The notes under the pieces: generated by a model
Database searches by the model: none
What the model was told of the DNA's origin: nothing
The model's input: the letters and a program-made list of their open reading frames with translations, nothing else
Part shown: in pieces, positions 534 to 32,772 of the stretch
Numbering within the stretch: position 1 is the first letter of the stretch
Layout: each line of letters opens with the position of its first letter
Assembly: GCA_017478805.1 (NCBI GenBank)
Contig: JAFVCY010000010.1
Location: forward strand, 484 to 64,483
Origin: Clostridia bacterium
GTDB taxonomy: Bacteria; Bacillota; Clostridia; TANB77; CAG-465
Reading direction: 5' to 3'
Length of the DNA: 64,000 nt
Program-made: the position numbers and the translations under genes

Positions 534-1090
534 GTTCTTGTCCTCCATTTGTCTACAAGCATTATATACCATTTTGTAATAAAATGCAAGCTTTTTTTTA
601 AAATTATGTAAATTAATTTTAATAATATCATTTTATAATAATTAATCAAGAAAAAAATTGTACACTAGAACATAAACTATCATTTGCTAGTATAGAAATT
701 ATTATCAACTTTCATTTGTAAAGTGTATAATAAAACTGAAAAAAAAAAAAAAACTACCTAAAAAAAGGTAGATTCTTAACATTTGTCCACCTACGCATTT
801 ATTTGTCGGAGGTAGGTCTCCGAATAACATTTGTTCACCTATGCATTTTTCATTATACACTTTATTATACAAAAAAGTCAAGACATTTTATCATTTCTTA
901 TAGCATTACGAATTTTTTCCGTTTACGGAACTTTTTCGTAATGTATTATATAAATCATTCTAAAATATATCGTTAATGATAGTGATTAAAATTGTAAGCC
1001 TTAATACTATGAAGAAAACCTTAGCATTAATCACTATTCTTATATATATATATTTATTTTTTAGCAGTAGTAATTTATATAACTATAGTA

Positions 1091-1127
1091 AAGGGAAAAA
1101 ATAAAGTGACATAAAACGTGTCACTTT
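1091..1127 (-). terminator. Rho-independent terminator downstream of spoIIID.
   Basis: An 8-bp stem (aaagtgac/gtcacttt) is followed on the minus strand by a T-run (attttttcc). Confidence 0.55.
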
Positions 1128-1143
1128 ACCTTATATATCTCTC

Positions 1144-1416
1144 TTAAACCGCCTCTTTTCTTGCTTCATACTTCATTTTAGTAGCCAAACCACCACGTAT
1201 ATGCCTCTCTTCCTTATTATGCTCAAGCACCTTTTTAGCCTCACCTGCAAGAACAGGATTAGACTTTTCTAATCTTTCCGAAATATCCTTGTGTACAGTA
1301 GATTTACTAACCTTAAAAACTTTAGCAGCCACCCTAACAGTGCTACCAGTTTCAATAATATACCTAGCGAGCATATCTGCTCTTTCCTCAATATCTGAAT
1401 ATACCAAAACTATCAC
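1144..1416 (-). CDS. spoIIID: Stage III sporulation protein D (SpoIIID), a small DNA-binding regulator.
   Basis: The 90-aa product contains ...ARYIIETGSTVRVAAKVFKVSKSTVHKDISERL...NKEERHIRGGLATK, an HTH pattern characteristic of SpoIIID. Confidence 0.9.
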   Translation of the reverse strand: MIVLVYSDIEERADMLARYIIETGSTVRVAAKVFKVSKSTVHKDISERLEKSNPVLAGEAKKVLEHNKEERHIRGGLATKMKYEARKEAV

Positions 1417-1456
1417 CCCTCATATTATTTATATACTTATTATTTTCCAAAATATG

Positions 1457-2101
1457 TTAAATATTTAAATATTTTGTTATATCAACTGCCTCATTTTTGT
1501 AATAGACAGAAATATATAAATAACTAGCATCAAGAAGTGAATAATCCAAAGTTTTACCAATAATAGTTCCTGCATCTACTTTATCACCAATTTTTACCAT
1601 AGCATCACTGTCTAGATTACTATATTTACAAGTAATATCATCACTATACTTTATAACAACACTATAACCATAGCTATAATCTAAAAAAACATTGTCAACA
1701 ACTCCGCTTGTCATACTATATACATTTTCATTTTTCTTGACTTTCATATTAATTATTCCGCTTGCGTAGTTATATGAAAGGATACTATTGCTATCCACAG
1801 GAAGTGAAAAATTACTATATATTTTTGAAATAGTATCTTTTACATCATTAGTTTCTTTACTAGTTTCCAAATTACTAAAAACAGGTGCTGCAGACTCATC
1901 TATTGCAGTAGTATTACTTTTCCTGCTTAAATTTGCCCCAAAGAAAAGCACCATAACTATTAAAAGCACATAATAACTTTTATTAATATTCCTTTTCTTA
2001 AATCTATTTCTTCTCCTTCCCTCCACTTTCTCTTTAGAAAATTGTTTTTTTACGTTATTTACAAAATCACTATTAAATTCTATCTTCATATTTACCTCCA
2101 T
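1457..2101 (-). CDS. spoIIQ: SpoIIQ-like membrane-anchored protein with a degenerate LytM/M23 domain.
   Basis: It has an N-terminal TM segment (YYVLLIVMVLFFGANL) and an M23-like core (GYSVVIKYSDDITCKYSNL...IGDKVDAGTIIGKT) in which the metal-binding His residues are missing. Its position between spoIID and spoIIID matches the conserved Firmicute synteny. Confidence 0.6.
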   Translation of the reverse strand: MEVNMKIEFNSDFVNNVKKQFSKEKVEGRRRNRFKKRNINKSYYVLLIVMVLFFGANLSRKSNTTAIDESAAPVFSNLETSKETNDVKDTISKIYSNFSLPVDSNSILSYNYASGIINMKVKKNENVYSMTSGVVDNVFLDYSYGYSVVIKYSDDITCKYSNLDSDAMVKIGDKVDAGTIIGKTLDYSLLDASYLYISVYYKNEAVDITKYLNI

Positions 2102-2114
2102 CTTTTGTTACTTT

Positions 2115-3140
2115 TTAAATTTTCTTAAGTTCAACTCCTGTATAATAATGTTTAATTATCTCCTCAAACGTTTTACCATTTTTTCCCAAGTAGTCTGCAC
2201 CAACCTGGCTCATACCAACCCCATGTCCATATCCTGTAACATGGAACACAAAACTATTATCATTTTGAGTAATAGTAAATAATGTTGATTTAAGGCCAAA
2301 AAGCTTCCTTAAATTTTCACTAGATATAATATAACCATTTATTATTGTATCACGCACTCTTGAGCTGTCAGTATACGAATTTACCGCCAAAACTCCATCT
2401 CCAAGTTCAAAGTTTTCATTTAACTCCTGCCTTACTTTATCTTTAAAATATTCTTTTTCCACTTCAAGCGTGCTATATCTATTTTTATAGTCCTCACTTT
2501 CCACAGATTCCACAGATACAAGGTAAGGAAAATGCTCTTTACCCCAGACTTCCTTAGCATCTTCAGTTCTTATAGGACTACTTGCATGAAAAAACGCCTT
2601 AATAATTTCATCATTATATGTAATAACTATACCATCAGTAGAAACAACGGCGCTATTAATTTTATTCCAATAATAATTTATCTCATCTTCATTCCACCCC
2701 TTTGAAAGTCTCCAAGACTTAAAAATTTCATCTTTTGACATATATGCTTGACAGTGATTTGCTGAAGAGCAAATATCACAGTTATAGTCATGACCTGCCA
2801 TTTTCTTTTCATAAAAATACGTTCTTGCAACTACTGCCTGAGCCTGAACAGCGCTATAGCTAAAATCAGCTGGCATTTCAGATGCCACAACACCTCTTAA
2901 GTAGTCATAAAAATCAATTTGAACTACTTCATCAATCTCAGGCCTGTACATAGATATACTTTGACCACTTTGAACCTCATCAAACATTTCAAACTCATCT
3001 TTTAAGTTTTCTGTACTCTCATCTAAATGTATAAGAGAGCTAGTACTTTCTACTATGCTTTCATTTGGTTTTGTTAAGAAATATGTTATAACGGATAAAA
3101 ATATGAAAAAAACACAAAAAAAGACAAGCCACTTTCTCAA
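2115..3140 (-). CDS. spoIID: Stage II sporulation protein D (SpoIID), a lytic transglycosylase. The start codon is TTG.
   Basis: SpoIID/LytB-domain motifs are present: ...HVTGYGHGVGMSQVGADYLGKNGKTFEEIIKHYYTGVEL and CDICSSANHCQAY. Confidence 0.9.
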   Translation of the reverse strand: MRKWLVFFCVFFIFLSVITYFLTKPNESIVESTSSLIHLDESTENLKDEFEMFDEVQSGQSISMYRPEIDEVVQIDFYDYLRGVVASEMPADFSYSAVQAQAVVARTYFYEKKMAGHDYNCDICSSANHCQAYMSKDEIFKSWRLSKGWNEDEINYYWNKINSAVVSTDGIVITYNDEIIKAFFHASSPIRTEDAKEVWGKEHFPYLVSVESVESEDYKNRYSTLEVEKEYFKDKVRQELNENFELGDGVLAVNSYTDSSRVRDTIINGYIISSENLRKLFGLKSTLFTITQNDNSFVFHVTGYGHGVGMSQVGADYLGKNGKTFEEIIKHYYTGVELKKI

Positions 3141-3207
3141 TATATATCACCCTATAATAATATATATTCATGACTTGTCTATTTTATTCATAAAAATTAT
3201 AATTTTT

Positions 3208-4554
3208 TTAATATTGAATGAATGATCCCATATAAATTTCAATAACCGGTACTAAAACAACTAGTACAAATACAATAAGCGCAACACCAACTACTGCATA
3301 AGTTACATCTGGAAGCCATCTAGTAAACTTACCAATAGACTCCTCTATTTGTATATCGATATAGCTGTTTACCTTATCCATCATTTCTGGAAGGTCAGTT
3401 TGCATACCTATTGTAAGCATCTCAGAAACCATTGGATTAAATATCTTTCTTTCCTGGAAAGGAACTATCCAAGAATCACCTGCCAAGCTTCTATTCTTTG
3501 CAACTTCGACAATTGACAAGAAATAATAGTTTGAAGTTACATTTTTAGAAACTGAAATAGCCTCATTAATCCTCATACCATTTTTTATATTAAGTAGCAT
3601 TGCTTGGAAGAAATTACTTACAGTCATATTTATAAGTAGCTGCCCTACAACTGGGAACTTAAACTTAAATTTATCCCAGTTATATCTACCTCTTGCAGTA
3701 TGTATATACACCTCAAATGCAGTAAATAACAGTACTAAAGCGGTTACTATATATCCCCAATGTGCAGCCAGCCAGTCTACCACATCTAATGCAACCTGAG
3801 TTGCAACCGGTATTGCCTTTTCTGAGTTGAACATCGCATATACATCTTTTAATAATGGAACACCCCAAATAAGTGCAACAAACATCAAAATGATAATCGC
3901 AAAAAACTGTACTAATTTAGGTATAATTGCTGCCCTAACCTTCTTCCTAAAATCATTACTCGATTCAATGTAATCACGAGCGTAAAGAAGCGCATTATCA
4001 AGTGTACCAGTTTCCTCACCTACACGTATGAAGTTAACGACCATAGGTGGAAAAACCTTTGGATAATTTAACATCATCGTATATAAACGTTCACCGTTTT
4101 CAACACCCTCAAGTATATGTTCAATTATATCTCTAAACGCTGGATTATCTGTTGTTTCATAAAGCGATTTAAGTGCTTGGATGTTATTGAACTTTGCCTT
4201 TTTCAAAATATACAAATTGTTAATAAATGCAACTATATCTTTATTCGAAATATTTGAAAAAAGATGAATTTCTATCTTCATCATTTCAGCAAAAGACATA
4301 CCACGTCTAACTTCTTTATCTATATCTTTAACCTTATCAATCTGCTCATCATATTTCTTTCTTGCTTTTAGTAATTTTTCTCTATCACGCTCGAATATTT
4401 TTTTTGTCCTTCTAGGCTCTATAACTTCAATCTTTATAGGCTGTATACTAGATTTTTTTAGTTTTTCAAAAACTTCAAGCTTAGTTTGAGATGGAATTAT
4501 TCCTTTAATTCTTGAACCATCCTTCAGCATACCCCTATACTTAAAATCTGGCAC
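3208..4554 (-). CDS. pilC: Type IV pilus assembly platform protein PilC (GspF family).
   Basis: The 448-aa product has two T2SSF-like repeats, three TM segments and a typical PilC N-terminus. Confidence 0.85.
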   Translation of the reverse strand: MPDFKYRGMLKDGSRIKGIIPSQTKLEVFEKLKKSSIQPIKIEVIEPRRTKKIFERDREKLLKARKKYDEQIDKVKDIDKEVRRGMSFAEMMKIEIHLFSNISNKDIVAFINNLYILKKAKFNNIQALKSLYETTDNPAFRDIIEHILEGVENGERLYTMMLNYPKVFPPMVVNFIRVGEETGTLDNALLYARDYIESSNDFRKKVRAAIIPKLVQFFAIIILMFVALIWGVPLLKDVYAMFNSEKAIPVATQVALDVVDWLAAHWGYIVTALVLLFTAFEVYIHTARGRYNWDKFKFKFPVVGQLLINMTVSNFFQAMLLNIKNGMRINEAISVSKNVTSNYYFLSIVEVAKNRSLAGDSWIVPFQERKIFNPMVSEMLTIGMQTDLPEMMDKVNSYIDIQIEESIGKFTRWLPDVTYAVVGVALIVFVLVVLVPVIEIYMGSFIQY

Positions 4555-4574
4555 TTACAAATCACCTCCTAATG

Positions 4575-6212
4575 TTAAATTGTTATTTTTCTCTTAAGTT
4601 CAGCTATTGTAGTTGTTCCATCTAATACTTTCTTTATAGCATCAACAACTAGTGGCTGATAATCTGTATTTTGTCTTGCATATTTCCTTATTGCACCAGT
4701 GCTTACTCCCTCAGAAATCATATCTTTAATATCGTCATCTAGGTTAAGCACTTCAAAAACACCAATTCTTTCATAGTACCCTGTACTATTACAATGCTCA
4801 CAACCAACAGGCTCATAAAGTTTAGCATGTTCTAAATCAAACTGATAACCTGTAACTTTACTTGCTCTGTCAATGTATGCTCTTTCTTCTTCAGTAAGTA
4901 CATGTTCTTTCTTACATTTTGTACATAGTCTTCTAACTAGTCTTTGAGAAAGAGTTGTAACAAGTGTAGATGATATATCATATGGAGATATACCAACTTT
5001 CTTAAGTCTTGTTATAGACTCAACTGCATCAATAGTATGCACTGTTGAAAGTACCAAGTGTCCAGTTTGACCTGCTTCAATTGCAGCAAATGCAGTTTCT
5101 TTATCTCTTATCTCACCTACAAGGATTATATCTGGGTCCTGTCTTAAAACGGTACGAAGTGCAGATGCAAATGTTATATTTGGTCCAATTTCTATTTGGT
5201 TTATACCAGGTATCCTCATTTCAACTGGGTTTTCAATTGACACTATATTTATATTTGGCTTATTCAAATAATCAAGTACGCTATATAGTGTTGTAGTTTT
5301 ACCTTCTCCAGTTGGTGCACAAACAAGTATAAGTGAATTTCTCTTATCGAACGCTTTTTCAACAAGCCCATCATCTTGTGGGAAACCAAGTTCTTCTGAA
5401 GATTTCATATCGCTATTTTTCTTTAAAAACCTTAAAACGAACTTTTCGCCCCATACATTTCTTTGTGAAGATACACGAATACTATAATTATCATAAGTAT
5501 TAATACTTCCATCTTGGTCATAAGATATCTCTTGGTGCATATTAGATATTGCTTTTAATCTTCCAACCATTATATCCTGCCTATCCTTTGCAATTTCAGT
5601 AGCAGATATAAGTTCACCATCAATTCTATATCTAATTCTAACCTTATCTTCCATTGGCTCAAAGTGAATATCACTTGCTCTTTTAGTAATTGCTGTCATT
5701 ATAATGTTATCAATAAGTCTTGTTGTATCCTTCTCATCTTTATCAACAAACTTATTCTCAACAGTTCTTACATCACCAATTTGCTTCATTATAGAAGTAT
5801 AAAGTGTTACATATCTCTTTGTTGTATAACCTGCATCTAAAAGCATAAGTTCAACTTCATGAACCCTATCTTCATCTTGGATATTAGCAAAAGCAACAGA
5901 TAGCATATTACCTTCCAACTTAAAAGGTAGCGCCCTATAATTAATTATAACATCACGTGGTAGGTAATCAGTTGGCTTTACAGGTAAATTTGTATCTAGC
6001 ATTATTCCTTCAACATTTAGTTTTGAAGAAAGAACTAATAAAATCTCATTTTTTGGACACATGTCTAGAATATCCACAATCTCTGCAAATTTTAGCTCTC
6101 TATGGTCCTTTTGATACTCTAAAACTCTAGTTACTTGAGTTTCAGTAAGTAGCCCCCTTTTAATAAATTCGAATCCTATAGGATTTTTCTTTGATTTAAC
6201 ACTTTCAAACAT
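4575..6212 (-). CDS. pilB: Type IV pilus assembly ATPase PilB (GspE family).
   Basis: It carries a Walker A motif (LVCAPTGEGKTTTLYS), Asp and His boxes, and a C-terminal tetracysteine (CTKCKK...CEHCNSTGY). Confidence 0.9.
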   Translation of the reverse strand: MFESVKSKKNPIGFEFIKRGLLTETQVTRVLEYQKDHRELKFAEIVDILDMCPKNEILLVLSSKLNVEGIMLDTNLPVKPTDYLPRDVIINYRALPFKLEGNMLSVAFANIQDEDRVHEVELMLLDAGYTTKRYVTLYTSIMKQIGDVRTVENKFVDKDEKDTTRLIDNIIMTAITKRASDIHFEPMEDKVRIRYRIDGELISATEIAKDRQDIMVGRLKAISNMHQEISYDQDGSINTYDNYSIRVSSQRNVWGEKFVLRFLKKNSDMKSSEELGFPQDDGLVEKAFDKRNSLILVCAPTGEGKTTTLYSVLDYLNKPNINIVSIENPVEMRIPGINQIEIGPNITFASALRTVLRQDPDIILVGEIRDKETAFAAIEAGQTGHLVLSTVHTIDAVESITRLKKVGISPYDISSTLVTTLSQRLVRRLCTKCKKEHVLTEEERAYIDRASKVTGYQFDLEHAKLYEPVGCEHCNSTGYYERIGVFEVLNLDDDIKDMISEGVSTGAIRKYARQNTDYQPLVVDAIKKVLDGTTTIAELKRKITI

Positions 6213-6432
6213 ATAAAACCTCCCATAATATGTTTATTTTTTTATTTAAACTATCATATTAAGTATGTAAATCTGATACAGTACTGTTATAATAACCTTG
6301 CAAAATCTTATCATACTTACCAGTTATAATGCTAAAATTATTACTAATTATTATACTAGCATTAATATACACTGCAATGGTTATAGTAGCAATTATTACA
6401 ATAAGAACAGCAGAGCCTTTCTTCTTTTTCAT

Positions 6433-6894
6433 TTAAACACCACCACCATCTAAAGAAACTACTATATCTCTTGAAATTTCAGTATCAAATCTTGAAAATG
6501 ATACATTTAAGCATAAGCTCTCACTCTTCTCAAGTATAGAGCTTGCAAGATCAACACCCTCTATTTCAAGTAATTCTTTAAAGTCAAAGTCATGCAAATA
6601 ATTTGCTAAAACTCCTCCATTTTTATACACTACATTATTTGCAGTATCAAATACGTACAAATCGCCGTTTGAAAATCTTAAATTATTATCTGAAATAGCA
6701 AAAGATGTAGATTTTTTTGCACTATCAAATAAATTCATATATGTTTTTGAATACTCACCTTGCAAATTATACGTAGCCGTCTCTGTCAAAACATTTCTGT
6801 TCATATTTGAACTTAAACTTACTGCAAAGGCAGTAAATACTGTAAATAGCACTAAATATATAATTATTGAGATAAGTGTCATACCTTTTTTCAT
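6433..6894 (-). CDS. Pseudopilin or minor-pilin-like protein.
   Basis: The N-terminus MKKG|MTLISIIIYLVLFTVF has a class III-like leader but lacks Glu at +5. Confidence 0.45.
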   Translation of the reverse strand: MKKGMTLISIIIYLVLFTVFTAFAVSLSSNMNRNVLTETATYNLQGEYSKTYMNLFDSAKKSTSFAISDNNLRFSNGDLYVFDTANNVVYKNGGVLANYLHDFDFKELLEIEGVDLASSILEKSESLCLNVSFSRFDTEISRDIVVSLDGGGV

Positions 6895-6895
6895 A

Positions 6896-7720
6896 TTAAC
6901 TCTTCCTTTTTTTAGATGTAGTTATTTCATAACTATACTTTTGATTATTAACAAGGCAAGTAGTTTTAGCATTTATAATCTTTATATTATCAGCCTTCTT
7001 ATTATACATATCACTTTGCTTTGTAACTGTAACAGTTGTTGAGTAAACTACTCCATCTAATACTGTACTAGAAACAAACGAATTTACATCATCATAATTA
7101 AGACCTAAGGCAATTTCTGCTATTTTAGTGCACTCAAGCATGCTATTACTTTTATACACATCCTCATACTTAGAGCTTGAGGAATTTCTAAATGTAAGAT
7201 AAGTAGCTGAAACTGAAATTGCAAATACAACAGCTGCAATTATTATCTCAGTTATAAAGACACCTGAATTTTTCTTTAGCTGCATATCCATATCTAATTT
7301 GTTTAATTCTTCTTTTATAAGTTTCTGCTTATTTATATAGCATCCAGTTGTCATTACTAGATATATGTATAAAGCAATAGCAATAAATGTATAAACTGAA
7401 ATACCAAATAAATAATAAAAACAAGCAAAAGCAAGCCCAGAGCACACTTCTAAAAGTAAATATCTAATACTTATTTTTTCCTTGCAATACTTACATTTTC
7501 CAAAATGAAATATATAACTTAAAACTGGTATTAAATCAAAAAATCCCAGTTTATGATTACATTTTGGACAAAAAGACCTAGTTGCAACAATATCCAATTT
7601 TCTAGGTAACCTGTAATTAGCAAGTGAAAAAAAACTACCAAACAAAGTACCTATTATAAAAAAGTTAATATATAAATAAATAGTTATAAAGTCCACTAGC
7701 TCACGCCCCTTTTTTAGCAT
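6896..7720 (-). CDS. PilD N-terminal zinc-finger membrane domain fused in frame to a canonical type IV prepilin. The A24 catalytic domain is absent.
   Basis: Residues 1-143 match the PilD N-domain (CPKCNHKLGFFDLIPVLSYIFHFGKCKYCKEKISIRYLLLEV) but no A24 Asp-Asp domain follows. Residues 144-274 read MDMQLKKNSG|VFITEIIIAAVVFAISV, with Gly-1 and Glu+5 as in a prepilin. Confidence 0.55.
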   Translation of the reverse strand: MLKKGRELVDFITIYLYINFFIIGTLFGSFFSLANYRLPRKLDIVATRSFCPKCNHKLGFFDLIPVLSYIFHFGKCKYCKEKISIRYLLLEVCSGLAFACFYYLFGISVYTFIAIALYIYLVMTTGCYINKQKLIKEELNKLDMDMQLKKNSGVFITEIIIAAVVFAISVSATYLTFRNSSSSKYEDVYKSNSMLECTKIAEIALGLNYDDVNSFVSSTVLDGVVYSTTVTVTKQSDMYNKKADNIKIINAKTTCLVNNQKYSYEITTSKKRKS

Positions 7721-7935
7721 AAATATTTTTTAGTATACATTTTACATCATATAAGTAAATATATAATCTAAAATATACATTATTATATATCAAAAAAGAA
7801 GAGAGAAACTGTAATCAGCATACAAGGAACTTAAAGTAATTATAATAAATATTATAATTATAATAAGTATCATAGTATACCTATTTAAACAATTCCTCCT
7901 CTTTTTTAATACTTAATTTAAACTATAAATTCAAA

Positions 7936-8418
7936 CTATGTTCCAGCTGGAGCATCAGTATAGAATTTAATGTTACCAAATTCATTCATAGCAATTTTGT
8001 ATGTCATTGTAGCTCCTGCTTTAGTTGGAGTCATACCAATAGCTGAAAGAATTGGAGCATATCCAGTTATAGCTGTACCAGTTACAACTGCACCAGTTGC
8101 ATCAACTGTTTTTGGAGTTACAGTAACATTTGCTAAATCCCAGTATGTTCCAGTTATAACATTACCATCAGTTCCAACTTTTCCAGTTAAAGCTGTTGTA
8201 CCAGTTATAGTTGGTTGGTTACCAGAACCGTCAGATATTAACTTAGCAAGCCATAAAACTGCTCCTGAGTTAAGATCTCCTTCTTCTTGTAGTAATGCTG
8301 CTTTATTAGCATTGTCAATTGGGTTGTTGTTACTTAGGTTTAAGATAACAGCACCTGCCAATATGATAATGATAATAATAGTAATAACTAGAACGATTAA
8401 AGAAATACCTTTTTTCAT
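7936..8418 (-). CDS. Pilin-like protein, a major-pilin candidate.
   Basis: The N-terminus MKKG|ISLIVLVITIIIIIILAGAV lacks Glu at +5, and the C-terminus is Gly/Thr-rich. Confidence 0.45.
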   Translation of the reverse strand: MKKGISLIVLVITIIIIIILAGAVILNLSNNNPIDNANKAALLQEEGDLNSGAVLWLAKLISDGSGNQPTITGTTALTGKVGTDGNVITGTYWDLANVTVTPKTVDATGAVVTGTAITGYAPILSAIGMTPTKAGATMTYKIAMNEFGNIKFYTDAPAGT

Positions 8419-8487
8419 ATTTACACCTCCCTATAGAAAAATAGTATATATAAAAACATATATATTATTTATATGTTTTTACCAAAA

Positions 8488-8967
8488 TTAGTTAATGTGG
8501 AAAACTTCAAATTCATCTATCCACCATTTTGGCTTATTTGAATATGAAAGTTTAAGCACACCCGCATCGCTTATATACCACGTTAAGTTACCTTCGTTTA
8601 CAAGCTGCGTAGATAAAACCTTAGTAAAATTCGATAAATTCACTTTATAATAAGTTACGTCACCTTTCTTTTTTACATTTTCAGTAGGATTAACAAGTGG
8701 TATTATTTCGCCACCTTTAGTATCACTAATTACTGAGTTTTCCATATCATCCAAATTAGATACACCAAGTAATAATTGCTCTACAGTATATGCATCAAAG
8801 GTATCAGCCCTAAGTTTTCCAATATATTCAGAAATCTTTACTTGACCTTCAATGACTGCCTTAAGCACACTTGTTGAATCTGCACTATATTGTGGATTCA
8901 AAAGATAAGATGATACTAAACCTATTATTATAATTAAAAGTATTACAATTATTATGTTCTTTTTCAA
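8488..8967 (-). CDS. Membrane-anchored pilus-associated protein.
   Basis: It has an N-terminal TM segment (IIIVILLIIIIGLV) and lies in the pilus operon. Confidence 0.4.
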   Translation of the reverse strand: MKKNIIIVILLIIIIGLVSSYLLNPQYSADSTSVLKAVIEGQVKISEYIGKLRADTFDAYTVEQLLLGVSNLDDMENSVISDTKGGEIIPLVNPTENVKKKGDVTYYKVNLSNFTKVLSTQLVNEGNLTWYISDAGVLKLSYSNKPKWWIDEFEVFHIN

Positions 8968-8983
8968 ATTTTACCTCCAGTCA

Positions 8984-9382
8984 TTATTTTGTAGTACCTG
9001 ATATAACAGCACCTGTTTTTGTAGAAGTTGTATTACTTGCAGTCGTATTTTGATTTGCTGTTTGATTTGTACTATTGTTAGTTGTCGTTGTTACAGTTTC
9101 AGTTGGAGTAAATGGGTCATAATTTCCAGGTACGTACTGCTTGTTATTTGTATATGTAGTAATATCTTCTCCACCAATTGAATAGTTTTGAGCTAGAATT
9201 TCAGTAACTAATTCTTTAGTTTCTACAAATTCATATTCATCACTTCTTACTCTAGCATAGCTTGGCACTACATCTGCTGATAAACTAGTTACCTGTGGTA
9301 ACATTATCAAGAACATGACTAGTACAATTGCTGATACTAATATTATTGATGCCACTATTGATAGCACGTAATGTTTGGTCAT
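8984..9382 (-). CDS. Membrane-anchored Ser/Thr-rich pilus-associated protein.
   Basis: It has an N-terminal TM segment, a T/N-rich C-terminus, and lies in the pilus operon. Confidence 0.4.
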   Translation of the reverse strand: MTKHYVLSIVASIILVSAIVLVMFLIMLPQVTSLSADVVPSYARVRSDEYEFVETKELVTEILAQNYSIGGEDITTYTNNKQYVPGNYDPFTPTETVTTTTNNSTNQTANQNTTASNTTSTKTGAVISGTTK

Positions 9383-9401
9383 TTTTTTACTCCTTTCCTA
9401 A

Positions 9402-10061
9402 CTATTTCTTAAGCTCTAATCCAGTTACTTCGAATATAGCAGAAATCTTATTATTTTCAGCATATTCCATACGTATATTATCTAGATTAAATCTTAATTC
9501 TTTGTCATTTTCAACGTTATATATAAATTCTGAAACATTTAAGTATGTACCCTTTACCATTATTTTTAATGTTTCAAGTGATACAGTATCTGATATTTGA
9601 GTTGATGTTGAACCTGTAGCTTTAGTAGTATTTGATGTATCATCATCAGTTGTAACTATAGTTGCTCCCGGCTCATAAAGTGAAATTGATAAGTTATTTG
9701 CAAGTGCATAGTTACCTAAGTTAACCCAAATATACTCTAAATTATATGTAGTACCCTTTGTTGCTTGGTTTATAATACTTATTGTTTCATCTGATATTGC
9801 ATCATATCTATTTTTTTCTTTTTCGTAATTGCTTTTTGCACTTTCTAAATTGTTAAGTGCATTTTTATGATTAGTTCTAGTCAAATCTAATGATTCAACT
9901 TTAGTATTTAATTCTTCTTTCTTCTCATCTAGAGCAGAAGTTGAATATACCTTGAACAATAATAAATCCATACCTTCTTCATTATTAATCATAAATATTA
10001 AAAGAGCAATACATAAAATAATAATACATATTTCTATTAATAATCCTTTTGCGTTTTTCAT
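9402..10061 (-). CDS. pilO: PilO-like inner-membrane pilus assembly protein.
   Basis: An N-terminal TM segment is followed by coiled-coil and a periplasmic domain. The gene overlaps pilMN by 4 nt. Confidence 0.55.
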   Translation of the reverse strand: MKNAKGLLIEICIIILCIALLIFMINNEEGMDLLLFKVYSTSALDEKKEELNTKVESLDLTRTNHKNALNNLESAKSNYEKEKNRYDAISDETISIINQATKGTTYNLEYIWVNLGNYALANNLSISLYEPGATIVTTDDDTSNTTKATGSTSTQISDTVSLETLKIMVKGTYLNVSEFIYNVENDKELRFNLDNIRMEYAENNKISAIFEVTGLELKK

Positions 10062-11686
10062 GGTAAATCACCTTCTATCTCTATTGTAATACTTGAAGAG
10101 TTTTCAACTTTAGTAATTTCAATGTTCTTTAATATATCAGGGCTTAACCTTAAGTTTGCAACTAAATATCCTAAATCTGGATAACGATTTGATTTAGCAC
10201 CTATTGTAATGTGCTTTTTGTCATCAGATTGGATGAATGTAAGAGTTACATTTTTAGGCATAATTTTTGCAAGTTTTTGCATAAACGATGCTAAATTATT
10301 AGTTGTAAATCTTCCAATTTCGTTATTATTTACTTGAGTTATAAGGTCATCTACCCTATCATTTACTGTTTTGTATTTTGTTGCACTTGAAGATATCACA
10401 GTTCTGTCTGCATCAATATTCTTTATTACATCATTATATTCAGATATCTTTGCATTATACTCTGATATATATCCATCCATTTTTGATATATATATATTAG
10501 TAAATACATTATATCCAATAACTACTGTAATTAATAGTGCAGCTGGATATACAAGTATAGACTGAATTTTTTCAATATCAAGTCCGGCACTATGTCTAAC
10601 TTTAACGTTTGCTTTAGTTTTCTTGTTTCCTCCAAATAATCCTCTAACTCTGCTTGAGAAAGGTACTTTCTTTGCAGAATACTGAGCCTTTAAGAAGTCA
10701 AGTTGTGACTTTGGATTATCTAAATAGAACTTTGCCAAACTTATTGCTGGAAGTACTTCTAATACTTCAGACATATTTCTTACATCACCAATTTCTGAAA
10801 TGAATCTTGGTTTGTATATCTCAGTTCTAATATTGAAATACTCTGTAAACAGTGTATCTATATTAGTAAATAGTGTTCCCATACCAGTTATATAAATCTT
10901 TGATATGTTTGATCTATTTCTATTTACCGTGTCTTGTAATCTTTGTAATACTTCTTGAAGTACTGGTTCAACAATTTGTTCAAACTGAACCTTATTAGTT
11001 GAATTGTCACTATCAGAAAATACATTTATTTCCTTACAAGCTTCATATGCTTTAGTATAACTTCCAAGTAAATCTTCAAACTGCAATAATATTTGATTCA
11101 TACCAATTTCATAGAAATTAGTTTCTGTCTTCTTATTATTTATAACAGTAGAGACGCTTAATGTTTCATCAAGGTTTACTAATATATAATTGTAGTCATC
11201 AACATTATTTGGTGCAATAAGTGAAAACTCATACGGAAACATTGCATTTATCTTTTTAGGTCCAATCTCTTCATATTGTTTAACCCCTGCTTTAGATGCT
11301 ATTGCAATTTCTCCAGAATAATGTTCTTCTTGTACAATTTCTGAAATAGTTTGAACGTACATATATTCATCTATTGCTTTAGCATTTTTATCGCACCATT
11401 CTTCAAACTCTAATCTTATAATATTATTTCTATCATTTCCTGAAATTTGTCTTAATATTTTAAATCCGCTATATTTAGCATCTGGAGCATTGATTACAAC
11501 CGGTATATCCATCGAATTAGCTTCAGATATTGCAGCATAAATTGCATCTTTTATATTTTGATCTTTTACAAATTTAACTGCGTGGTTTTTAATATTTAAA
11601 GTACCATCGCCAGCTTTTTCTAGCTTAGCATATTTGACAAAATTTTTATCAAAATAAATACCTAAGCAACTGTTAGAACCTGCCAT
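10058..11686 (-). CDS. pilMN: PilM-PilN fusion protein.
   Basis: The N-terminal part is an actin-like PilM fold (CLGIYFDKNFVKYAKLEK...). A TM segment (LVYPAALLITVVIGYNVF) and a PilN-like C-terminus follow. Confidence 0.7.
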   Translation of the reverse strand: MAGSNSCLGIYFDKNFVKYAKLEKAGDGTLNIKNHAVKFVKDQNIKDAIYAAISEANSMDIPVVINAPDAKYSGFKILRQISGNDRNNIIRLEFEEWCDKNAKAIDEYMYVQTISEIVQEEHYSGEIAIASKAGVKQYEEIGPKKINAMFPYEFSLIAPNNVDDYNYILVNLDETLSVSTVINNKKTETNFYEIGMNQILLQFEDLLGSYTKAYEACKEINVFSDSDNSTNKVQFEQIVEPVLQEVLQRLQDTVNRNRSNISKIYITGMGTLFTNIDTLFTEYFNIRTEIYKPRFISEIGDVRNMSEVLEVLPAISLAKFYLDNPKSQLDFLKAQYSAKKVPFSSRVRGLFGGNKKTKANVKVRHSAGLDIEKIQSILVYPAALLITVVIGYNVFTNIYISKMDGYISEYNAKISEYNDVIKNIDADRTVISSSATKYKTVNDRVDDLITQVNNNEIGRFTTNNLASFMQKLAKIMPKNVTLTFIQSDDKKHITIGAKSNRYPDLGYLVANLRLSPDILKNIEITKVENSSSITIEIEGDLP

Positions 11687-11751
11687 AATTCACTCCTTTT
11701 CTACAATCTACAACTTATTTTACCATATGTTAAAAAAATATAAAGTCTTTT

Positions 11752-11758
11752 TGTCGAA
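11752..11758 (+). promoter_or_regulatory. Spo0A 0A-box (TGTCGAA) about 66 nt upstream of pilMN.
   Basis: The sequence matches the consensus 0A box exactly. Confidence 0.3.
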
Positions 11759-11819
11759 TTTTTTCTAAATTTTTGTTTTTTTAATATTTTTAAAATTTTC
11801 TTGTAACAAAAGTGACATA

Positions 11820-12242
11820 TTATTTTTTAGTAATTTTGTATTTATAACCATAATCTAGTACTGCTTTTATTCTTACTGTTACGTTCATTCTGCTTTCTTT
11901 CATAGTATTAAAGTCTATGCAATATGGAATCGAATCATTAACAAAAATGTAACCTGTCTCCCATATAAACTCTGAATAGCTGTAATATTCTTTCATATAA
12001 TCTAAGCTTACATTAGCATAAGTTTTTGGATATTTTTGATTAGTTGTAACATTATATAGTTCATAAATATTTCCAACTTTTAGAAATAGGTATGTTGTAT
12101 CGTCTTTTGTTACAAATGGATAGAAATCAGTTGAGTAACTGTATATTCCATCTATTATAACTTCACCTTTTAAATTGTATATTTTATTTACAGTATTTCC
12201 TTTCTTCTGATATACAAAGTTATGTCCGGGTAACGAACTCAA
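11820..12242 (-). pseudogene. 3' fragment of a WG-repeat membrane protein, out of frame with 12220-13143.
   Basis: KWG-like repeats (KIYNLKGEVIIDGIY) continue the upstream ORF after a +1 shift, and the two ORFs overlap by 23 nt. Confidence 0.45.
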
Positions 12243-13143
12243 AGCCAGTATCTACCTCTTGAAGTTTTTCATCTTTAAAGAATAAATATGCTTTTTCATT
12301 TCTATAAACAAGTACACCATTTGTATCTCCTGTAAGTTCAGTTATGCTATCGCATGCAACATCTAAAACAATTCTTCCTGTTTCATCAACTATCCCATAT
12401 TTAGCACTTTTATTATTATCGCTGCCTTTTAACGAAACGATATATTGTGACCTATTTTGCTGCGTTGGATATTCTAAAGCTTGTTTTACGTCATACTTTT
12501 CTTTTATTTCATTTGAAGCATTAGTAGCTCTATATGCAGTTTTACTATCTAAAAAAGTAGTTACTTCATTCATAGAAGTAAAATCTTTGTTGTTATATCT
12601 TACACCTTGATCAGTGTATATTCTATATACTGATGAATTTCCAGTTCCATAAGTTAGTATAAAATATGGAAGTGGATATGAAGTATTTTTATCATATACC
12701 AAATTCACATCTGTTTCTTTACCACCTAAGCTTATGCTTTTGTTATTATCTAAAAAGAACACATAGCTTTCTACTCCGTCATTTAAATAAACTGAATTTC
12801 CATTTCTAAGTATTGTTTGGTATCTGCACTCAAGTACTTGAGTTCCGTCAGACTTATTTAGACCTAAAGCCTCACCGCTTTCAGTTACAAAATACAAATC
12901 ATTTTTTTCAAAAACTATATTTTCTCCTTGTGTAGAAAATACACCACTTTCATATAAATAATATACTATTCCTCCAATAAGTAATAACACTGCTAAAATT
13001 AAAATTAATGATGAACGACCATTTTTCATAAAATCAAAACTCCCCTTTTTTCTCATATTAGCACATATAAATTTTTTTTTCAATATTTTTTTACAAAAAA
13101 TTACATATAAAAAATCCATACTACTTTTAGTATGGACTTTCAT
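12220..13143 (-). CDS. WG-repeat (KWG-like) membrane-anchored protein, 5' part.
   Basis: It has a TM segment (LILILAVLLLIGGIVYY) and repeats such as AKYGIVDETGRIVL. Confidence 0.5.
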   Translation of the reverse strand: MKVHTKSSMDFLYVIFCKKILKKKFICANMRKKGSFDFMKNGRSSLILILAVLLLIGGIVYYLYESGVFSTQGENIVFEKNDLYFVTESGEALGLNKSDGTQVLECRYQTILRNGNSVYLNDGVESYVFFLDNNKSISLGGKETDVNLVYDKNTSYPLPYFILTYGTGNSSVYRIYTDQGVRYNNKDFTSMNEVTTFLDSKTAYRATNASNEIKEKYDVKQALEYPTQQNRSQYIVSLKGSDNNKSAKYGIVDETGRIVLDVACDSITELTGDTNGVLVYRNEKAYLFFKDEKLQEVDTGFEFVTRT

Positions 13144-13168
13144 ATATATTTTTATTCATGCTTTTTTT

Positions 13169-13945
13169 CTAAAATTGATACGTTTGAATGCATTCATTTC
13201 TTTTTACATATATATCTGAAAAAAGACTCTGTTGCTCAAGAGTTACTTGCTTTTCTTTACTAAGTTCAAGAGTTCCTAAAAAAGCAGTTACCACTTCAAT
13301 TTTATCATTTTTTGATACATTAAACATATTATTAAATATAAAGCTTTCATTATTTTTTAAGTAATTTACAATTTGGTTTGTTTTATCTTTTACAGTTATT
13401 CTTTCATACAAAGCAATCTTTTCTATCTCTTTTGCTTTTATGTTCATTTTATTCCTATTTCTAGTAATAGCTGATAAATATATGTCTTTAAGCTTTTCTA
13501 AGTCAAACATTTCTCCCGTATATTCATTTTGTTTTTCAAATTTAATTTTTTCTGGTTTTTTTTCAAAACTTCCAAAATTTTCTTTATATCTTTCTAGAAT
13601 ATACACACTTAATTCTTTATACTTTTTGTACTGAATAAGTCTTGCCATCAATTCTTCTTCTGATATAGTTTCTTCATCTTCCTTCTCTTCTTTCGGAAGA
13701 AGTTTTCTTGATTTTATTTCTATAAGAAGTGAAGCCATAACTACAAATTCAGTAGCAATCTCTATATTTAATTCACTCATTTCATTTAAATATGCTATGT
13801 ATTCATCTGTTAAATCATTTAAAGATATTTCAAATATATTCATTTTATTTTTACATATTAAATATAGCAAAACATCAAGTGGGCCTTCAAAGTTATTTAT
13901 GGTTATGTTATGCTCCATCTTTTTATTTATTATACTATCTTTCAT
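13169..13945 (-). CDS. scpA: Segregation and condensation protein A.
   Basis: The N-terminus reads MEHNITINNFEGPLDVLLYLICKNKMNIFEISLNDLTDEY. Confidence 0.85.
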   Translation of the reverse strand: MKDSIINKKMEHNITINNFEGPLDVLLYLICKNKMNIFEISLNDLTDEYIAYLNEMSELNIEIATEFVVMASLLIEIKSRKLLPKEEKEDEETISEEELMARLIQYKKYKELSVYILERYKENFGSFEKKPEKIKFEKQNEYTGEMFDLEKLKDIYLSAITRNRNKMNIKAKEIEKIALYERITVKDKTNQIVNYLKNNESFIFNNMFNVSKNDKIEVVTAFLGTLELSKEKQVTLEQQSLFSDIYVKRNECIQTYQF

Positions 13946-13948
13946 ATT

Positions 13949-14686
13949 TTACCTTTCTTTGTTCGTAGCTGTCTCAAGAGCTATAAGTATCATATCATTT
14001 AAAGATTTCTCTCTATCTTCACTAGATACTGAAGCCTTATCTGTATTAGAATCTACAACAGTAAGAAGGCATGCTGCCTCTTTTTTCAAATGCTCTGCTG
14101 TATTAAAAAGTGCGTACGCTTCCATTTCAACTACCTCATAGTCAAAGTCTTTTGGAATTCTAGATAGCATCTTTTCTTTATCTATATACCAATCAAAGCA
14201 TTCACATGTTATACCATTTCCACACTTTAAGTCAATATTTAGTTTCTTAGCTGACTGAATTATTTCTTCATTTAACTCTTTATTTGCTTCTATAATATGC
14301 TCTTTAGAATTTCTAAGTGTTAAAGCAAAATTTCCTTCCGAAAAAACTTTATTAACTAAGAAAGTGTCAAGTAACTTTAATCTCTTTCCAAAGCTTCCAC
14401 ATGAGCCAATACGTACTATTCTATCTACATTATAAAACTTATATAGTTCATACGCATATATCCCCATACTTGCACAGCCCATGCCACTTCCCATTACAGA
14501 TATTCTCTTTCCTTTATATGTGCCTGTATATCCAAGCATGCCCCTTACTTCATTAAAACAAACTGCATTTTTTAAAAAATTATCTGCTATATATTTTGCT
14601 CTTTTTGGATCACCTGGCATTATAACTGTGCTAGCTATATCACCTAAAGCTGCACTATTATGTGGTGTTGGTGCACTACTATTCAT
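13949..14686 (-). CDS. deoD: Purine nucleoside phosphorylase, DeoD type.
   Basis: The sequence PHNSAALGDIASTVIMPGDPKRAKYIA...GMLGYTGTYKGKRISVMGSGMG matches the DeoD family. Confidence 0.85.
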   Translation of the reverse strand: MNSSAPTPHNSAALGDIASTVIMPGDPKRAKYIADNFLKNAVCFNEVRGMLGYTGTYKGKRISVMGSGMGCASMGIYAYELYKFYNVDRIVRIGSCGSFGKRLKLLDTFLVNKVFSEGNFALTLRNSKEHIIEANKELNEEIIQSAKKLNIDLKCGNGITCECFDWYIDKEKMLSRIPKDFDYEVVEMEAYALFNTAEHLKKEAACLLTVVDSNTDKASVSSEDREKSLNDMILIALETATNKER

Positions 14687-15095
14687 AACTACCCCCTTTA
14701 AATCCCCTTCTATATAAGTAGGATTTTATTTTTATTTCTTCTTCTCCTAATTTTTCTTTCTTTAACCTTATTTTTCTTATTACTTCTTTCTCGTATTCCA
14801 TATCATTAAGCACGCTTGCTACATAATCTAACAGTTCTTCATTTATACCTTTTGCTTTAAGCTTATTTACAATTTCAAAAATAGAATATTTCTGCATTTT
14901 TGACTCTTGCCTTATATATGCCTCAACATATTCTCTATCGTTTATGTATGATATATCTTTTAAATGATTTATTACCTGCATTACTACATCTTCATCGCAT
15001 TTTAAACTTATCAGTTTATCTCTTACTTCTTTTTCAGTTTTTAAAGAAGCTGTTAGAAATCTAACAGCTTTTTCTGTTGCTACTACATAGTCCAT
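14679..15095 (-). CDS. recX: RecX-like regulatory protein.
   Basis: It lies immediately downstream of recA and has RecX-like helical repeats. Confidence 0.6.
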   Translation of the reverse strand: MDYVVATEKAVRFLTASLKTEKEVRDKLISLKCDEDVVMQVINHLKDISYINDREYVEAYIRQESKMQKYSIFEIVNKLKAKGINEELLDYVASVLNDMEYEKEVIRKIRLKKEKLGEEEIKIKSYLYRRGFKGGSYE

Positions 15096-15098
15096 ATA

Positions 15099-16160
15099 TT
15101 ATTCCTCATTTGATTCAAACTCTTCTTCTTCCACTTCTGGCTCTTCCATGCTATCTAAACTTTTTTCAAAAGCCTGGGCAAAGTTTGCTCTTACTTTTTC
15201 TTCTATTTCTTTCATAACTTGTGGGTTTGACTTAATATATTCTTTTGCATTTTCTCTACCTTGTCCTATCTTTTCACCGTTATATGAGAACCATGCACCA
15301 CTTTTATTTACTATATCTAAGTTTGCAGCTAGGTCTAATATACATCCCTCATTTGATATACCTTGACCATACATTATGTCAAATTCTGCTTCTCTAAATG
15401 GAGGAGCCACTTTATTTTTTACAACCTTAACCTTAGTTCTGCTTCCTACAACTTCACCATTTACCTTTATTGCTTCTTGTCTCCTTATATCAAGTCTTAC
15501 TGATGCATAGAATTTAAGTGCTCTACCACCTGGTGTGGTTTCAGGATTTCCAAACATTACTCCTACTTTTTCTCTTAACTGGTTAATAAATATTGCTACT
15601 GTATTTGATTTATTTAGTACTCCTGTTATCTTCCTTAGTGCTTGAGACATAAGTCTAGCTTGAAGTCCTATATGTGAGTCTCCCATTTCGCCATCTATTT
15701 CAGCTTTTGGAACAAGTGCTGCGACAGAGTCAATAGTTATTATATCTACTGCTCCACTTCTTATTAATTGCTCTGCAATTTCTAACGCCTGCTCACCTGT
15801 ATCTGGCTGTGATACAATTAGATTATCTACATCTACTCCTAATTTTTTAGCATATACTGGGTCTAAAGCATGCTCTGCATCAATAAATGCAGCTACTCCA
15901 CCTGCTTTTTGTGCTTCTGCTATTGCATGAAGAGCAACTGTTGTTTTACCTGATGATTCAGGTCCAAATATTTCAATTATTCTTCCTCTTGGAAATCCTC
16001 CTATTCCAAGTGCAATATCTAAGCTTAATGCTCCACTTGGGATATATTCAACATTACTATTTGAAAATTCTCCAAGTTTCATTATTGAACCTTTTCCAAA
16101 ATTCTTTTCAATTTGTGCCATTGCTATGTCTAGTGCTTTTTTTCTTTCTTCTGATATCAT
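15099..16160 (-). CDS. recA: Recombinase RecA.
   Basis: The sequence [35 protein letters not shown] and the full RecA core are present. Confidence 0.95.
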
Positions 16161-31897: not shown

Positions 31898-32539
31898 TTA
31901 TTCCTCCATTTTACATATTTTCAAATAAATAACATACATAAAAAAGTATGTAAGAATATTAAAACTAAGAATAGCTTGTCCACCTATAGTATTTAGTATT
32001 ATGTCACTATAATCTTTATTTCTAAGAGCAAAGCCAAATAAAAGTAGAAGGCTTAAACCGATTAAAACAATGAGTATAATTTTGCTACTTAGCAAATTCT
32101 CATTTATTCTTTCCCTTTCTATATTTGTCTTTGACTGTGAATAAGAATACTTTTGTATAACATAGCTAAAACTTCCACCATTTAAGTAGCAATTCTCAAG
32201 TAAAGTTAAAAGTGAAGATACCTCCTCTATATTTATATCCTTTTTCAAATTTTCAAACGCACTATATACATCAAGACCTTTTTCAACACTTAAGTTAAAT
32301 CTCTCAATACTAGCTTTTATTAACGGATGAGGTGTAGATTCTTTAAGCGCATACACAATGTTATTATCTACATCTGTATAATTTTTAAGGCTAAGTACAT
32401 ATGTTGGGAAAAATTTTAATATACTATTTTTTCTTCTTTTTAGTAAATATATAGCAGCATTATACGGAATCATAGCTATGAGTATAGCCATTAAAAATGA
32501 TGGAATAATACTTTTTAGTATTCCGCATGAAAAAAACAT
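31898..32539 (-). CDS. TadB/TadC-like (T2SSF-domain) membrane platform protein.
   Basis: It has an N-terminal TM segment, a cytoplasmic helical domain and two C-terminal TM segments. Confidence 0.5.
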   Translation of the reverse strand: MFFSCGILKSIIPSFLMAILIAMIPYNAAIYLLKRRKNSILKFFPTYVLSLKNYTDVDNNIVYALKESTPHPLIKASIERFNLSVEKGLDVYSAFENLKKDINIEEVSSLLTLLENCYLNGGSFSYVIQKYSYSQSKTNIERERINENLLSSKIILIVLIGLSLLLLFGFALRNKDYSDIILNTIGGQAILSFNILTYFFMYVIYLKICKMEE

Positions 32540-32669
32540 ATGAAAATATAAATACTAAAGAAGAAAAAACTAAGAAAGTAGTCATAGAAAGAAATTTAAA
32601 GTTATAATTTATTGCTACTTCTAAAATTGTATCCTTGAGTGATAAATATCTTTTATTTTCTTTTATCAA
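32460..32669 (-). CDS. Small membrane protein, which may instead be a frameshifted 5' part of the TadB-like gene.
   Basis: It has a single TM segment and overlaps the downstream ORF by 80 nt. Confidence 0.3.
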   Translation of the reverse strand: MIKENKRYLSLKDTILEVAINYNFKFLSMTTFLVFSSLVFIFSYVFFMRNTKKYYSIIFNGYTHSYDSV

Positions 32670-32772
32670 ATTTAGTTTTTCACTTATACTATTTACAGTA
32701 AGCGTTGAATTAATAATTCTAACGCTTGACAGACATATAATAAATTTTAAAATTTCAATTATATATACTATA

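Follow-up and report, generated by a model that had tools for sequence, protein, structure and literature searches.

The closest described relative of the protein reported here is PilD/XcpA of Pseudomonas aeruginosa (MEROPS A24A), in which an N-terminal A24_N domain, made of a first transmembrane (TM) helix, a CxxC-X21-CxxC zinc finger with a Gly and a basic residue before its third Cys, and a second TM helix, is joined to an A24 protease domain. To our knowledge, A24_N is joined to the protease in every system that has been studied. Here we analyzed a gene at positions 6896 to 7720 (minus strand) of a 64,000-nucleotide stretch from a Clostridia bacterium (GCA_017478805.1, contig JAFVCY010000010.1, positions 484 to 64,483; hereafter the window, to which all coordinates without a locus name refer). 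Its product resembles PilD/XcpA in the whole of this N-terminal arrangement, and the gene likewise lies inside a type IV pilus operon beside pilin genes, but it lacks the A24 protease domain, as PF01478, both catalytic Asp and the GxGD motif are all absent, and a prepilin stands in the place of that domain. As judged from these features the fusion protein cannot be a peptidase, and we read this protease-less PilD remnant joined to a prepilin as a working variant and not as a product of decay.

Other described systems share one feature or another with the fusion. The peptidase-only A24 proteins (TadV/CpaA and the archaeal FlaK/PibD) also illustrate that the modules of PilD are separable in nature, and they are its mirror image, keeping the protease without the methylase whereas the fusion keeps the methylase without the protease. 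Modular type IV pilins, such as PilB and PilC of Streptococcus sanguinis, similarly unite a pilin module and an extra domain in one polypeptide; their extra domain is C-terminal, exported and carried on the pilus, while that of the fusion is at the N-terminus, is embedded in the membrane and precedes the cleavage site, and would hence not leave the membrane. The GspI/XcpV/EpsI minor (pseudo)pilins resemble the pilin half in being small, with an alpha1 helix, a short sheet and a Glu at position +5 of the mature protein (Glu5), a similarity that is statistically non-significant, and they differ from it in that no J or K partners were identified in the window operon. Closest in position is a group of PilD-like proteins of sister gut Clostridia that we call family B (grade ii of the series described below; e.g., Clostridium sp. 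CAG:567, L068), which occupy the same slot in the operon and have an A24_N domain 60-69% identical. In the sampled family B loci, as in the window operon, the Glu/Asp5 prepilin beside the gene is the only pilin with an acidic residue at +5; unlike the fusion, these proteins retain a polytopic, A24-homologous C-domain (no PF01478 match, no GxGD), and the prepilin is separate and has a short leader. Being partly like PilD (in its methylase half) and partly like a minor prepilin, the fusion is a full member of neither family.

Methylation of pilins by PilD has been assigned to the IPR010627 domain (PMC10191384, PMC4471445), and the Cys of the finger, a Gly and a basic residue adjoining the third Cys are needed for it (PMC3584216); zinc and these finger residues are required for methylation and not for cleavage (PMC3584216). 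Glu5 of type IV pilins is important for methylation and dispensable for cleavage, class III leaders reported so far are 6-26 aa long, and prepilin peptidases are often promiscuous, their genes frequently lying apart from those of the pilus (PMC4471445). What pilin N-methylation is for, and what exactly the PilD N-domain does, has stayed unresolved for more than 40 years (PMC10191384, PMC4471445). Our searches of the full-text literature turned up neither a described A24_N-pilin fusion nor a described PilD without its peptidase.

Architecture and conservation of the fused gene

Read from the ATG at 7720, the open reading frame (ORF) codes for 274 aa and ends in a stop codon at 6896-6898. No ribosome-binding site accompanies this ATG; the probable real start is a GTG at 7696 (codon 9), which lies 9 nt after an AAGGGG ribosome-binding site, agrees with the beginnings of homologues and with an independent gene call (P0001, 266 aa), and would give a product of 266 aa. 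The Pfam scan of the ORF recovered A24_N_bact (PF06750) at residues 22-104 (7409-7657; E = 2.1e-28; 98.6 bits against a gathering cut-off of 23; profile positions 1-83 of 84), i.e., TM1, a cytoplasmic zinc ribbon and TM2. The same scan gave no Peptidase_A24 (PF01478) even at E ≤ 1, and profile search of residues 100-274 found no A24 domain; the NCBIfam scan returned nothing relevant, and a clade-specific hidden Markov model (HMM) of the PilD C-domain did not match the ORF. The zinc finger (C51-x2-C54-x21-C76-x2-C79, with G74-K75 directly before the third Cys) lies at 7484-7570. It is followed, after TM2, by TM3 (residues 109-133, 7322-7396), which was delimited from an AlphaFold2 helix and from alignment with PilD relatives, and by a charged cytoplasmic linker (residues 134-152, 7265-7321). 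An earlier reading of the sequence alone (the sequence-only reading) had taken the first 143 aa as an N-domain match and as the length of the leader: the finger and the PF06750 assignment stood, while the extent did not, the profile ending at residue 104, and the leader would come to about 153 aa with three TM helices.

The residues KKNS directly precede G153, and the core of the internal class III signal, G153↓V154-F-I-T-E158 (the arrow marks the cleavage site; 7247-7264; GGT GTC TTT ATA ACT GAG), lies in a segment that reads KKNSG↓VFITEIIIAAVVFAISVSATYL, in which the Gly before the cleavage site (Gly-1) is followed by about 21 hydrophobic residues interrupted by Glu5. The sequence-only reading had rightly pointed to this canonical signal and to the pilin it introduces as the sole pilin of the window operon with Glu5. 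An AlphaFold2 model of the protein, built on a 33-sequence alignment (mean predicted local distance difference test score, pLDDT, of 81), places TM1 at residues 11-37, the zinc ribbon at 38-84, TM2 at 85-105 and TM3 at 109-133, and renders part of the linker (pLDDT 60-69) as a low-confidence charged helix (136-148). The predicted mature minor pilin (residues 154-274, 6899-7261) is modeled with an alpha1 helix of 54 residues (153-206) and a four-stranded antiparallel sheet (215-271; strands 215-221, 224-234, 246-257 and 260-271; pLDDT 86-91), which in the model gives it the classic pilin shape. The linker and Gly-1 are predicted to face the cytoplasm and the pilin head to face outward. A24 peptidases cut on the cytoplasmic face, and this predicted topology would hence meet the need of an A24 peptidase substrate.

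The gene was recovered from an independent read set, as Logan contig SRR12529324 (L088), which is 99.95% identical to window positions 913-15513 (14.6 kb), carries an identical fusion gene. A search of 5.8 billion proteins returned 1383 matches, and we inspected the best 120 clusters at 90% identity: all are 254-294 aa long and cover the full query at 37-100% identity, 119 of them carry PF06750 only and none carries PF01478. Database proteins were then pooled with ORFs from related genomes into a set of 157 distinct sequences, which represent about 50 species. Identities range between 63% and 34%, and every sequence is an intact single ORF with Gly-1 (100%) and Glu or Asp at +5 (100%), and Val stands at +1 in 91%. 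The cleavage Gly falls at residue 133-173 across the family, the linker varying in length, and GxGD occurs after residue 95 in none of 169 family members. In the 33-sequence alignment (A1), residues 21-98 account for 32 of the 40 invariant columns; C51, C54, K75, C76 and C79 are invariant, as are G153, V154 and E158, and G74 is nearly so. In a second alignment of six rows (A2), G74 is invariant and position 75 is Arg in two. By its residues the fusion appears to keep every feature reported to be needed for PilD methylation, including zinc binding by implication. We take these alignments to show that purifying selection acts strongly on the two halves as well as on the motif at the junction, and the fusion is a small, clade-restricted family under such selection; at 50% clustering it comes to about 20 representatives among 15,865 proteins at E ≤ 0.001, nearly all of which are N-domain-only matches. 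The database names of its relatives, such as 'prepilin peptidase', 'PppA' and 'PulO-like enzyme' (P0019, P0022, P0058, P0102), are wrong for the fusion family, which has no peptidase domain, and amount to a systematic mis-annotation.

Internal starts at M143/M145, which would yield a short-leader prepilin, were rejected as a general mechanism, since these Met are not conserved in the family.

Descent from the pilD of the operon

A scan of one genome per species yielded 274 genomes with a relative, the best 80 loci of which are all from metagenome-assembled genomes (MAGs) of uncultured gut Clostridia, including Clostridium sp. CAG:465, CAG:921 and CAG:567. Operon genes are intact and syntenic in these loci, in a constant order: pilMN, pilO, small bitopic gene(s), major pilin(s), a slot that we call X, pilin-like gene(s), pilB, usually pilT, and pilC. 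Slot X is filled in three grades. In grade i (L075 and a second lineage, L090/L091) it holds a PilD of 256 aa in which PF06750 and PF01478 both match, with the motifs IAGIDKE and GYGDIK, directly followed by a separate 125 aa Glu5 prepilin (MNSKKG↓YSLIE). In grade ii (28 species) it holds a protein of about 270 aa with PF06750 and no PF01478 at E ≤ 0.01, whose C-domain is still recognized as A24-derived by the clade-specific HMM (E from 1e-14 to 5e-5); this domain keeps IAGIDKE and is without GxGDxK, a nearby position being Asp, Glu, Gln, Gly or Ser depending on the lineage. The prepilin is again separate (125-180 aa in most loci, about 300 aa in two) and typically reads KSNKG↓FTMQD...RLKIKEI. 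Grade iii is the fusion, found in 49 of the 80 loci.

The grade ii C-domain (L053-L083, e.g., L068:7146-7961) is well conserved and carries its own motifs (IYRYVIYL, and within a TM helix a Glu206 that is nearly invariant); rather than dying, it may have been repurposed as a pseudo-peptidase. In L069 (9986-11641), the PilD-like ORF continues into an ABC-F type ATPase (551 aa), which is probably a chimeric artefact of the MAG rather than a genuine fusion.

An HMM built on the fusion's pilin half matches the separate downstream prepilin in every grade i and grade ii locus (E from 6e-20 to 3e-4), which identifies this half as the orthologue of the prepilin in the sister loci. The first TM helix of the protease domain has its counterpart in TM3, the alignment reaching as far as G126, which corresponds to the invariant Gly of 'AGID'; TM3 is what remains of that helix after the loss of the A24 peptidase domain. 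At the following position, that of the first catalytic Asp, the window protein has Tyr and most fusion members have Tyr, Asn or Met, and the second Asp and its GxGD are missing from the window protein as well; the most divergent (basal) subclade of the fusion (L042-L052) still reads IG(V/S/T)D. Together with the orthologous downstream prepilin, the alignment of TM3 shows an origin by in-frame deletion and fusion; the deleted stretch began right behind the first catalytic motif and reached as far as the leader of the downstream gene. Since the fusion fills the slot of canonical PilD in L075, L090 and L091, we consider its descent from the operon's pilD to be shown, and the sequence-only reading's proposal that an internal deletion fused pilD to a downstream pilin is borne out by the sister lineages, in which a PilD-like gene and a separate orthologous prepilin sit at the same position. 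The ancestor was a bifunctional PilD (zinc-finger 'methylase' plus C-terminal A24 aspartyl protease) followed by a separate Glu5 minor prepilin, and the protease domain first degenerated and was later deleted in a branch of uncultured low-GC gut Clostridia, leaving an ORF in the order TM1, Zn ribbon, TM2, TM3, charged cytoplasmic linker, KKxG↓VFxxE and pilin.

Between the window and the non-fused loci A24_N is 60-69% identical, and in the same comparison PilB reaches 48-52%, PilC 36-38% and PilMN about 25%, so A24_N is the most conserved protein segment of the operon, with or without an attached protease. Its conservation across the graded series argues for an essential function that is independent of proteolysis.

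One lineage nested in the fusion clade has divided the gene again: in L064 (9827-10785) a 4 nt ATGA stop/start overlap splits the ORF in the linker, giving an A24_N ORF of 183 aa and a short-leader prepilin of 136 aa (MNNNKKLSKNSG↓VFISE). Five independent assemblies (L064, L084-L087) share exactly this junction, and the split is a real derived state of that lineage and no evidence of an error in the window. As both halves are intact, they can function as separate polypeptides, and they correspond to the products that cleavage of the fusion at G↓V would yield.

Processing of the fusion protein

We hold it to be probable on balance that a peptidase acting in trans cuts the protein at G↓V and thus yields a stand-alone methylase module and an I-type minor pilin from a conserved pilD descendant. 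The polypeptide would insert in the membrane with its linker in the cytoplasm, a prepilin peptidase encoded elsewhere in the genome would cut after G153, and the N-terminal module of about 150 aa, with its three TM helices, would remain membrane-bound and act on its own as a pilin methylase or as a factor that handles prepilins. The mature minor pilin of about 120 aa from V154, probably of the I type, would start with the N-methyl-Val peptide VFITEIIIAAVVFAISVSATYLTFR and join the priming complex of pilus assembly. The fusion would be, in effect, a polyprotein of an enzyme and its most likely substrate; the likeliest consequence, we infer, is reliance on a peptidase encoded elsewhere and a three-TM leader of about 153 aa.

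The distribution of the acidic +5 residue suggests that the N-module and its neighbor belong together. In the window, as in canonical L075, this residue is found only on the pilin beside or fused to the PilD-derived gene, and no acidic +5 occurs in the N-termini of major pilins and of p153-type proteins (p153 being the pilin-like protein encoded at 6433-6894) sampled across all three grades. Because the fused pilin is the only one of the operon with Glu5, and because Glu5 matters for methylation, the N-module and the adjoining Glu5 pilin would form an enzyme-substrate pair.

The remaining pilins of the window lie on the same strand on either side of the fusion gene: a putative major pilin upstream (7936-8418; MKKG↓ISLIV, no Glu5; no Pfam or NCBIfam model matches), a minor pilin-like protein downstream (6433-6894; MKKG↓MTLIS, no Glu5; weak N_methyl and ComGF matches), whose gene keeps its position in all loci, and beyond it a pilin-like protein of 57 aa (6259-6432; KKKKG↓SAVLI, no acidic +5). 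The sequence-only reading had counted 8488-9382 among the pilin-like genes without Glu+5; it was correct for 6433-6894 and 7936-8418, and the third region resolved into two ORFs for bitopic membrane proteins (8984-9382 and 8488-8967, minus strand) with no Gly-1 motif. All other pilins of the operon retain K-K-G↓ leaders, which implies that the system still needs a Gly-1 peptidase. Clade-wide (L004-L083; KKG↓ISLIV, KG↓ITLIA), the putative major pilins have no Glu5 and go unrecognized by the Pfam and NCBIfam pilin models, and such pilins are present even in the canonical-PilD lineage L075. Since that sister lineage has the same pilins, the Glu5-less pilins are ordinary A24 substrates.

The search for a peptidase took in the 64 kb of the window and, for each relative, 20 kb. 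In the window, a Pfam scan of every polytopic ORF found no A24 peptidase, the clade PilD C-domain HMM found nothing in the six-frame translation (best E = 0.024, on an antisense ORF), GxGD occurred in no polytopic protein (GxGD-plus-TM filter) and Escherichia coli GspO as a phmmer query had no match, in line with what had been claimed from the sequence alone, namely that the window holds neither an A24 domain nor a prepilin peptidase gene. Across about 1.5 Mb of searched flanks the sole polytopic protein with GxGD was L075's own PilD. With the peptidase domain of a canonical relative as query, only 40 proteins were retrieved, all of the canonical lineage, and no candidate trans peptidase was among them. 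A second secretion-ATPase cluster is located at 31898-36666 (minus strand), with a protein carrying a single weak T2SSF domain (31898-32539), a CpaF/TadA-like T2SSE ATPase (32773-33936), a ParA/TadZ-like protein (33933-35117) and a TraG/VirB4-like P-loop ATPase (35095-36666).

Several observations weigh against cleavage in trans and against the roles given to the two products. No peptidase with GxGD lies within 10 kb of any fusion or grade ii locus; the second ATPase cluster, examined as the home of a TadV-like peptidase, has no recognizable peptidase and no recognizable pilin, and the peptidase acting in trans is an assumption, none having been found in the window or in the flanks of fusion loci. 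The cleavage Gly at residue 153 sits behind three TM helices and a zinc finger, outside the 6-26 aa range, and we know of no precedent for a three-TM leader some 150 aa long. The A24_N domain has no recognized SAM (S-adenosylmethionine)-binding fold, and its standing as the catalytic methyltransferase 'remains to be formally demonstrated' (PMC4471445). As for the pilin half, it gave no match to PF07963 (N_methyl) or TIGR02532 at E ≤ 1 in the Pfam and NCBIfam scans, and its canonical-lineage orthologue reaches the N_methyl profile weakly (E = 2.7e-4). Foldseek against the PDB returned no significant match, the best pilin-like ones being XcpV and EpsI (non-significant at E 0.1-0.7; target-normalized TM-score 0.4-0.6), and in hhalign of the pilin-half profile E. 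coli GspI came out best among GspG/H/I/J/K with a probability of only 30% over 81 columns. The assignment to the 'I' (GspI/XcpV) type is tentative, being built on these non-significant Foldseek and hhalign matches.

The first of these observations would also suit a protein that is never cleaved, in which the pilin, tethered by three TM helices, acts as a fixed part of the machine (base anchor, primer dock or stopper) and not as a filament subunit. Besides the missing peptidase and a leader far beyond the known range, such a role would be in keeping with the AlphaFold2 model, which is one continuous membrane protein, and with the Lys/Arg before the pilin helix, which are expected from the positive-inside rule alone. 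We nevertheless regard it as unlikely. Gly-1 is invariant in the 157 sequences, in the K-x-G↓(V/A)xxx(E/D) pattern that the unfused orthologue KG↓FTMQD also shows, and an unchanged cleavage requirement is the simpler fit to this shared pattern; in addition, the L064 lineage makes the halves separately, with a normal short leader on the prepilin, and the linker varies in length and sequence as a tether would and a structural element would not.

Less probable still, and in our view distinctly doubtful, is a clade without any A24 peptidase, in which the pilins and the fusion are processed by an unknown mechanism or are used unprocessed, and A24_N serves this new route. It would be the strongest form of an idea to which we give an equally small chance, namely that A24_N is autonomous without the protease and delivered as an enzyme-substrate polyprotein with the only Glu5 pilin; in this form the pilins, the prepilin with its three-TM 'leader' of 150 aa included, would mature by a route that has not been described. 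It could draw on the stepwise degeneration of the peptidase domain (canonical, then without GxGD, then deleted) in an operon that stays intact and even multiplies its pilin genes (six or seven tandem copies, in L022 and L056), and on major pilins that all lack Glu5 and escape the pilin HMMs. However, the canonical-PilD sister lineage has the same Glu5-less pilins, every pilin keeps Gly-1, prepilin peptidases are often promiscuous and often lie apart from the pilus genes (PMC4471445), and our view spans the 64 kb and 20 kb given above.

Two further explanations fare worse than cleavage in trans and than both of these alternatives. It is true that deletion of a catalytic domain gave rise to the fusion, and the sequence-only reading had thought of a decaying system; a pseudogene in a dying pilus locus is nonetheless refuted by an intact ORF in all 157 sequences at identities down to 34%, conserved Gly-1 and +5 residues, an A24_N better conserved than PilB, and operon genes that are all intact and syntenic. 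An artefact in which a missing stop or a frameshift joined two genes, for which one could cite the A-runs in the linker DNA and the two ORFs of the L064 lineage, can practically be dismissed, since the independent read set of L088 carries the identical gene, a single ORF is found in dozens of assemblies from different groups, a stop missing here was not seen in close relatives (the L064 overlap being a derived state), and non-fused relatives separate the two genes by a whole domain of about 150 aa, not by a stop.

The wider operon and the meaning of the series

The type IV pilus operon runs on the minus strand from 11686 down to 3208, in DNA with a G+C content of 28% for the whole window, and sporulation genes are found near it (spoIID, SpoIIID, Spo0A, YabG). 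It opens with a PilM-PilN fusion (10058-11686; PilN PF05137) and a PilO-like protein (9402-10061), continues with the bitopic proteins and pilins described above, and closes with the extension ATPase PilB (4575-6212; PF00437, E = 7.6e-98) and the platform protein PilC (3208-4554; PF00482, E = 9e-34). The 215 nt spacer between the major pilin and the fusion gene (7721-7935) contains a stable long hairpin followed by a U-run (AAAAAAGAGGAGGAAUUGU...ACAGUUUCUCUCUUCUUUUUU), with a minimum free energy of -61.6 kcal/mol (z = -7.7) for the RNA fold. It looks like a terminator or attenuator that would set the output of the major pilin above that of the downstream genes. A sigma-70 promoter scan was uninformative in DNA of 28% GC, with fewer sites than in shuffles.

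In most relatives pilT is situated between pilB and pilC; this retraction ATPase is missing from that place in the window (4554-4575) and likewise in L023, L031, L037 and L046. Tandem arrays of major pilins were also noted in L025 (four copies), next to those of six copies in L022 and seven in L056. Pilin-like ORFs of 370-730 aa with a KKG↓ISLI-type N-terminus were encountered in L039 (16369-20562), L049 (16450-18636) and L050 (354-2492), and large homologues of p153, about 380 aa long and with the same type of N-terminus, in L041 and L043; all of these are candidates for modular pilins with grafted domains.

The loci studied here belong to one syntenic operon family and form a graded series that leads from canonical PilD through PilD with a degenerate protease and the fusion of N-module and prepilin to the N-module alone (L064). 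Such a natural series separates the N-module from the protease and offers a handle on the role of the PilD N-domain and on pilin methylation. The definition of the class III signal is stretched by it as well, to a possible membrane-spanning leader of about 150 aa. Finally, the operon suggests that Clostridia of the human and animal gut possess a widespread type IV pilus that has gone unstudied, with major pilins that lack Glu5.

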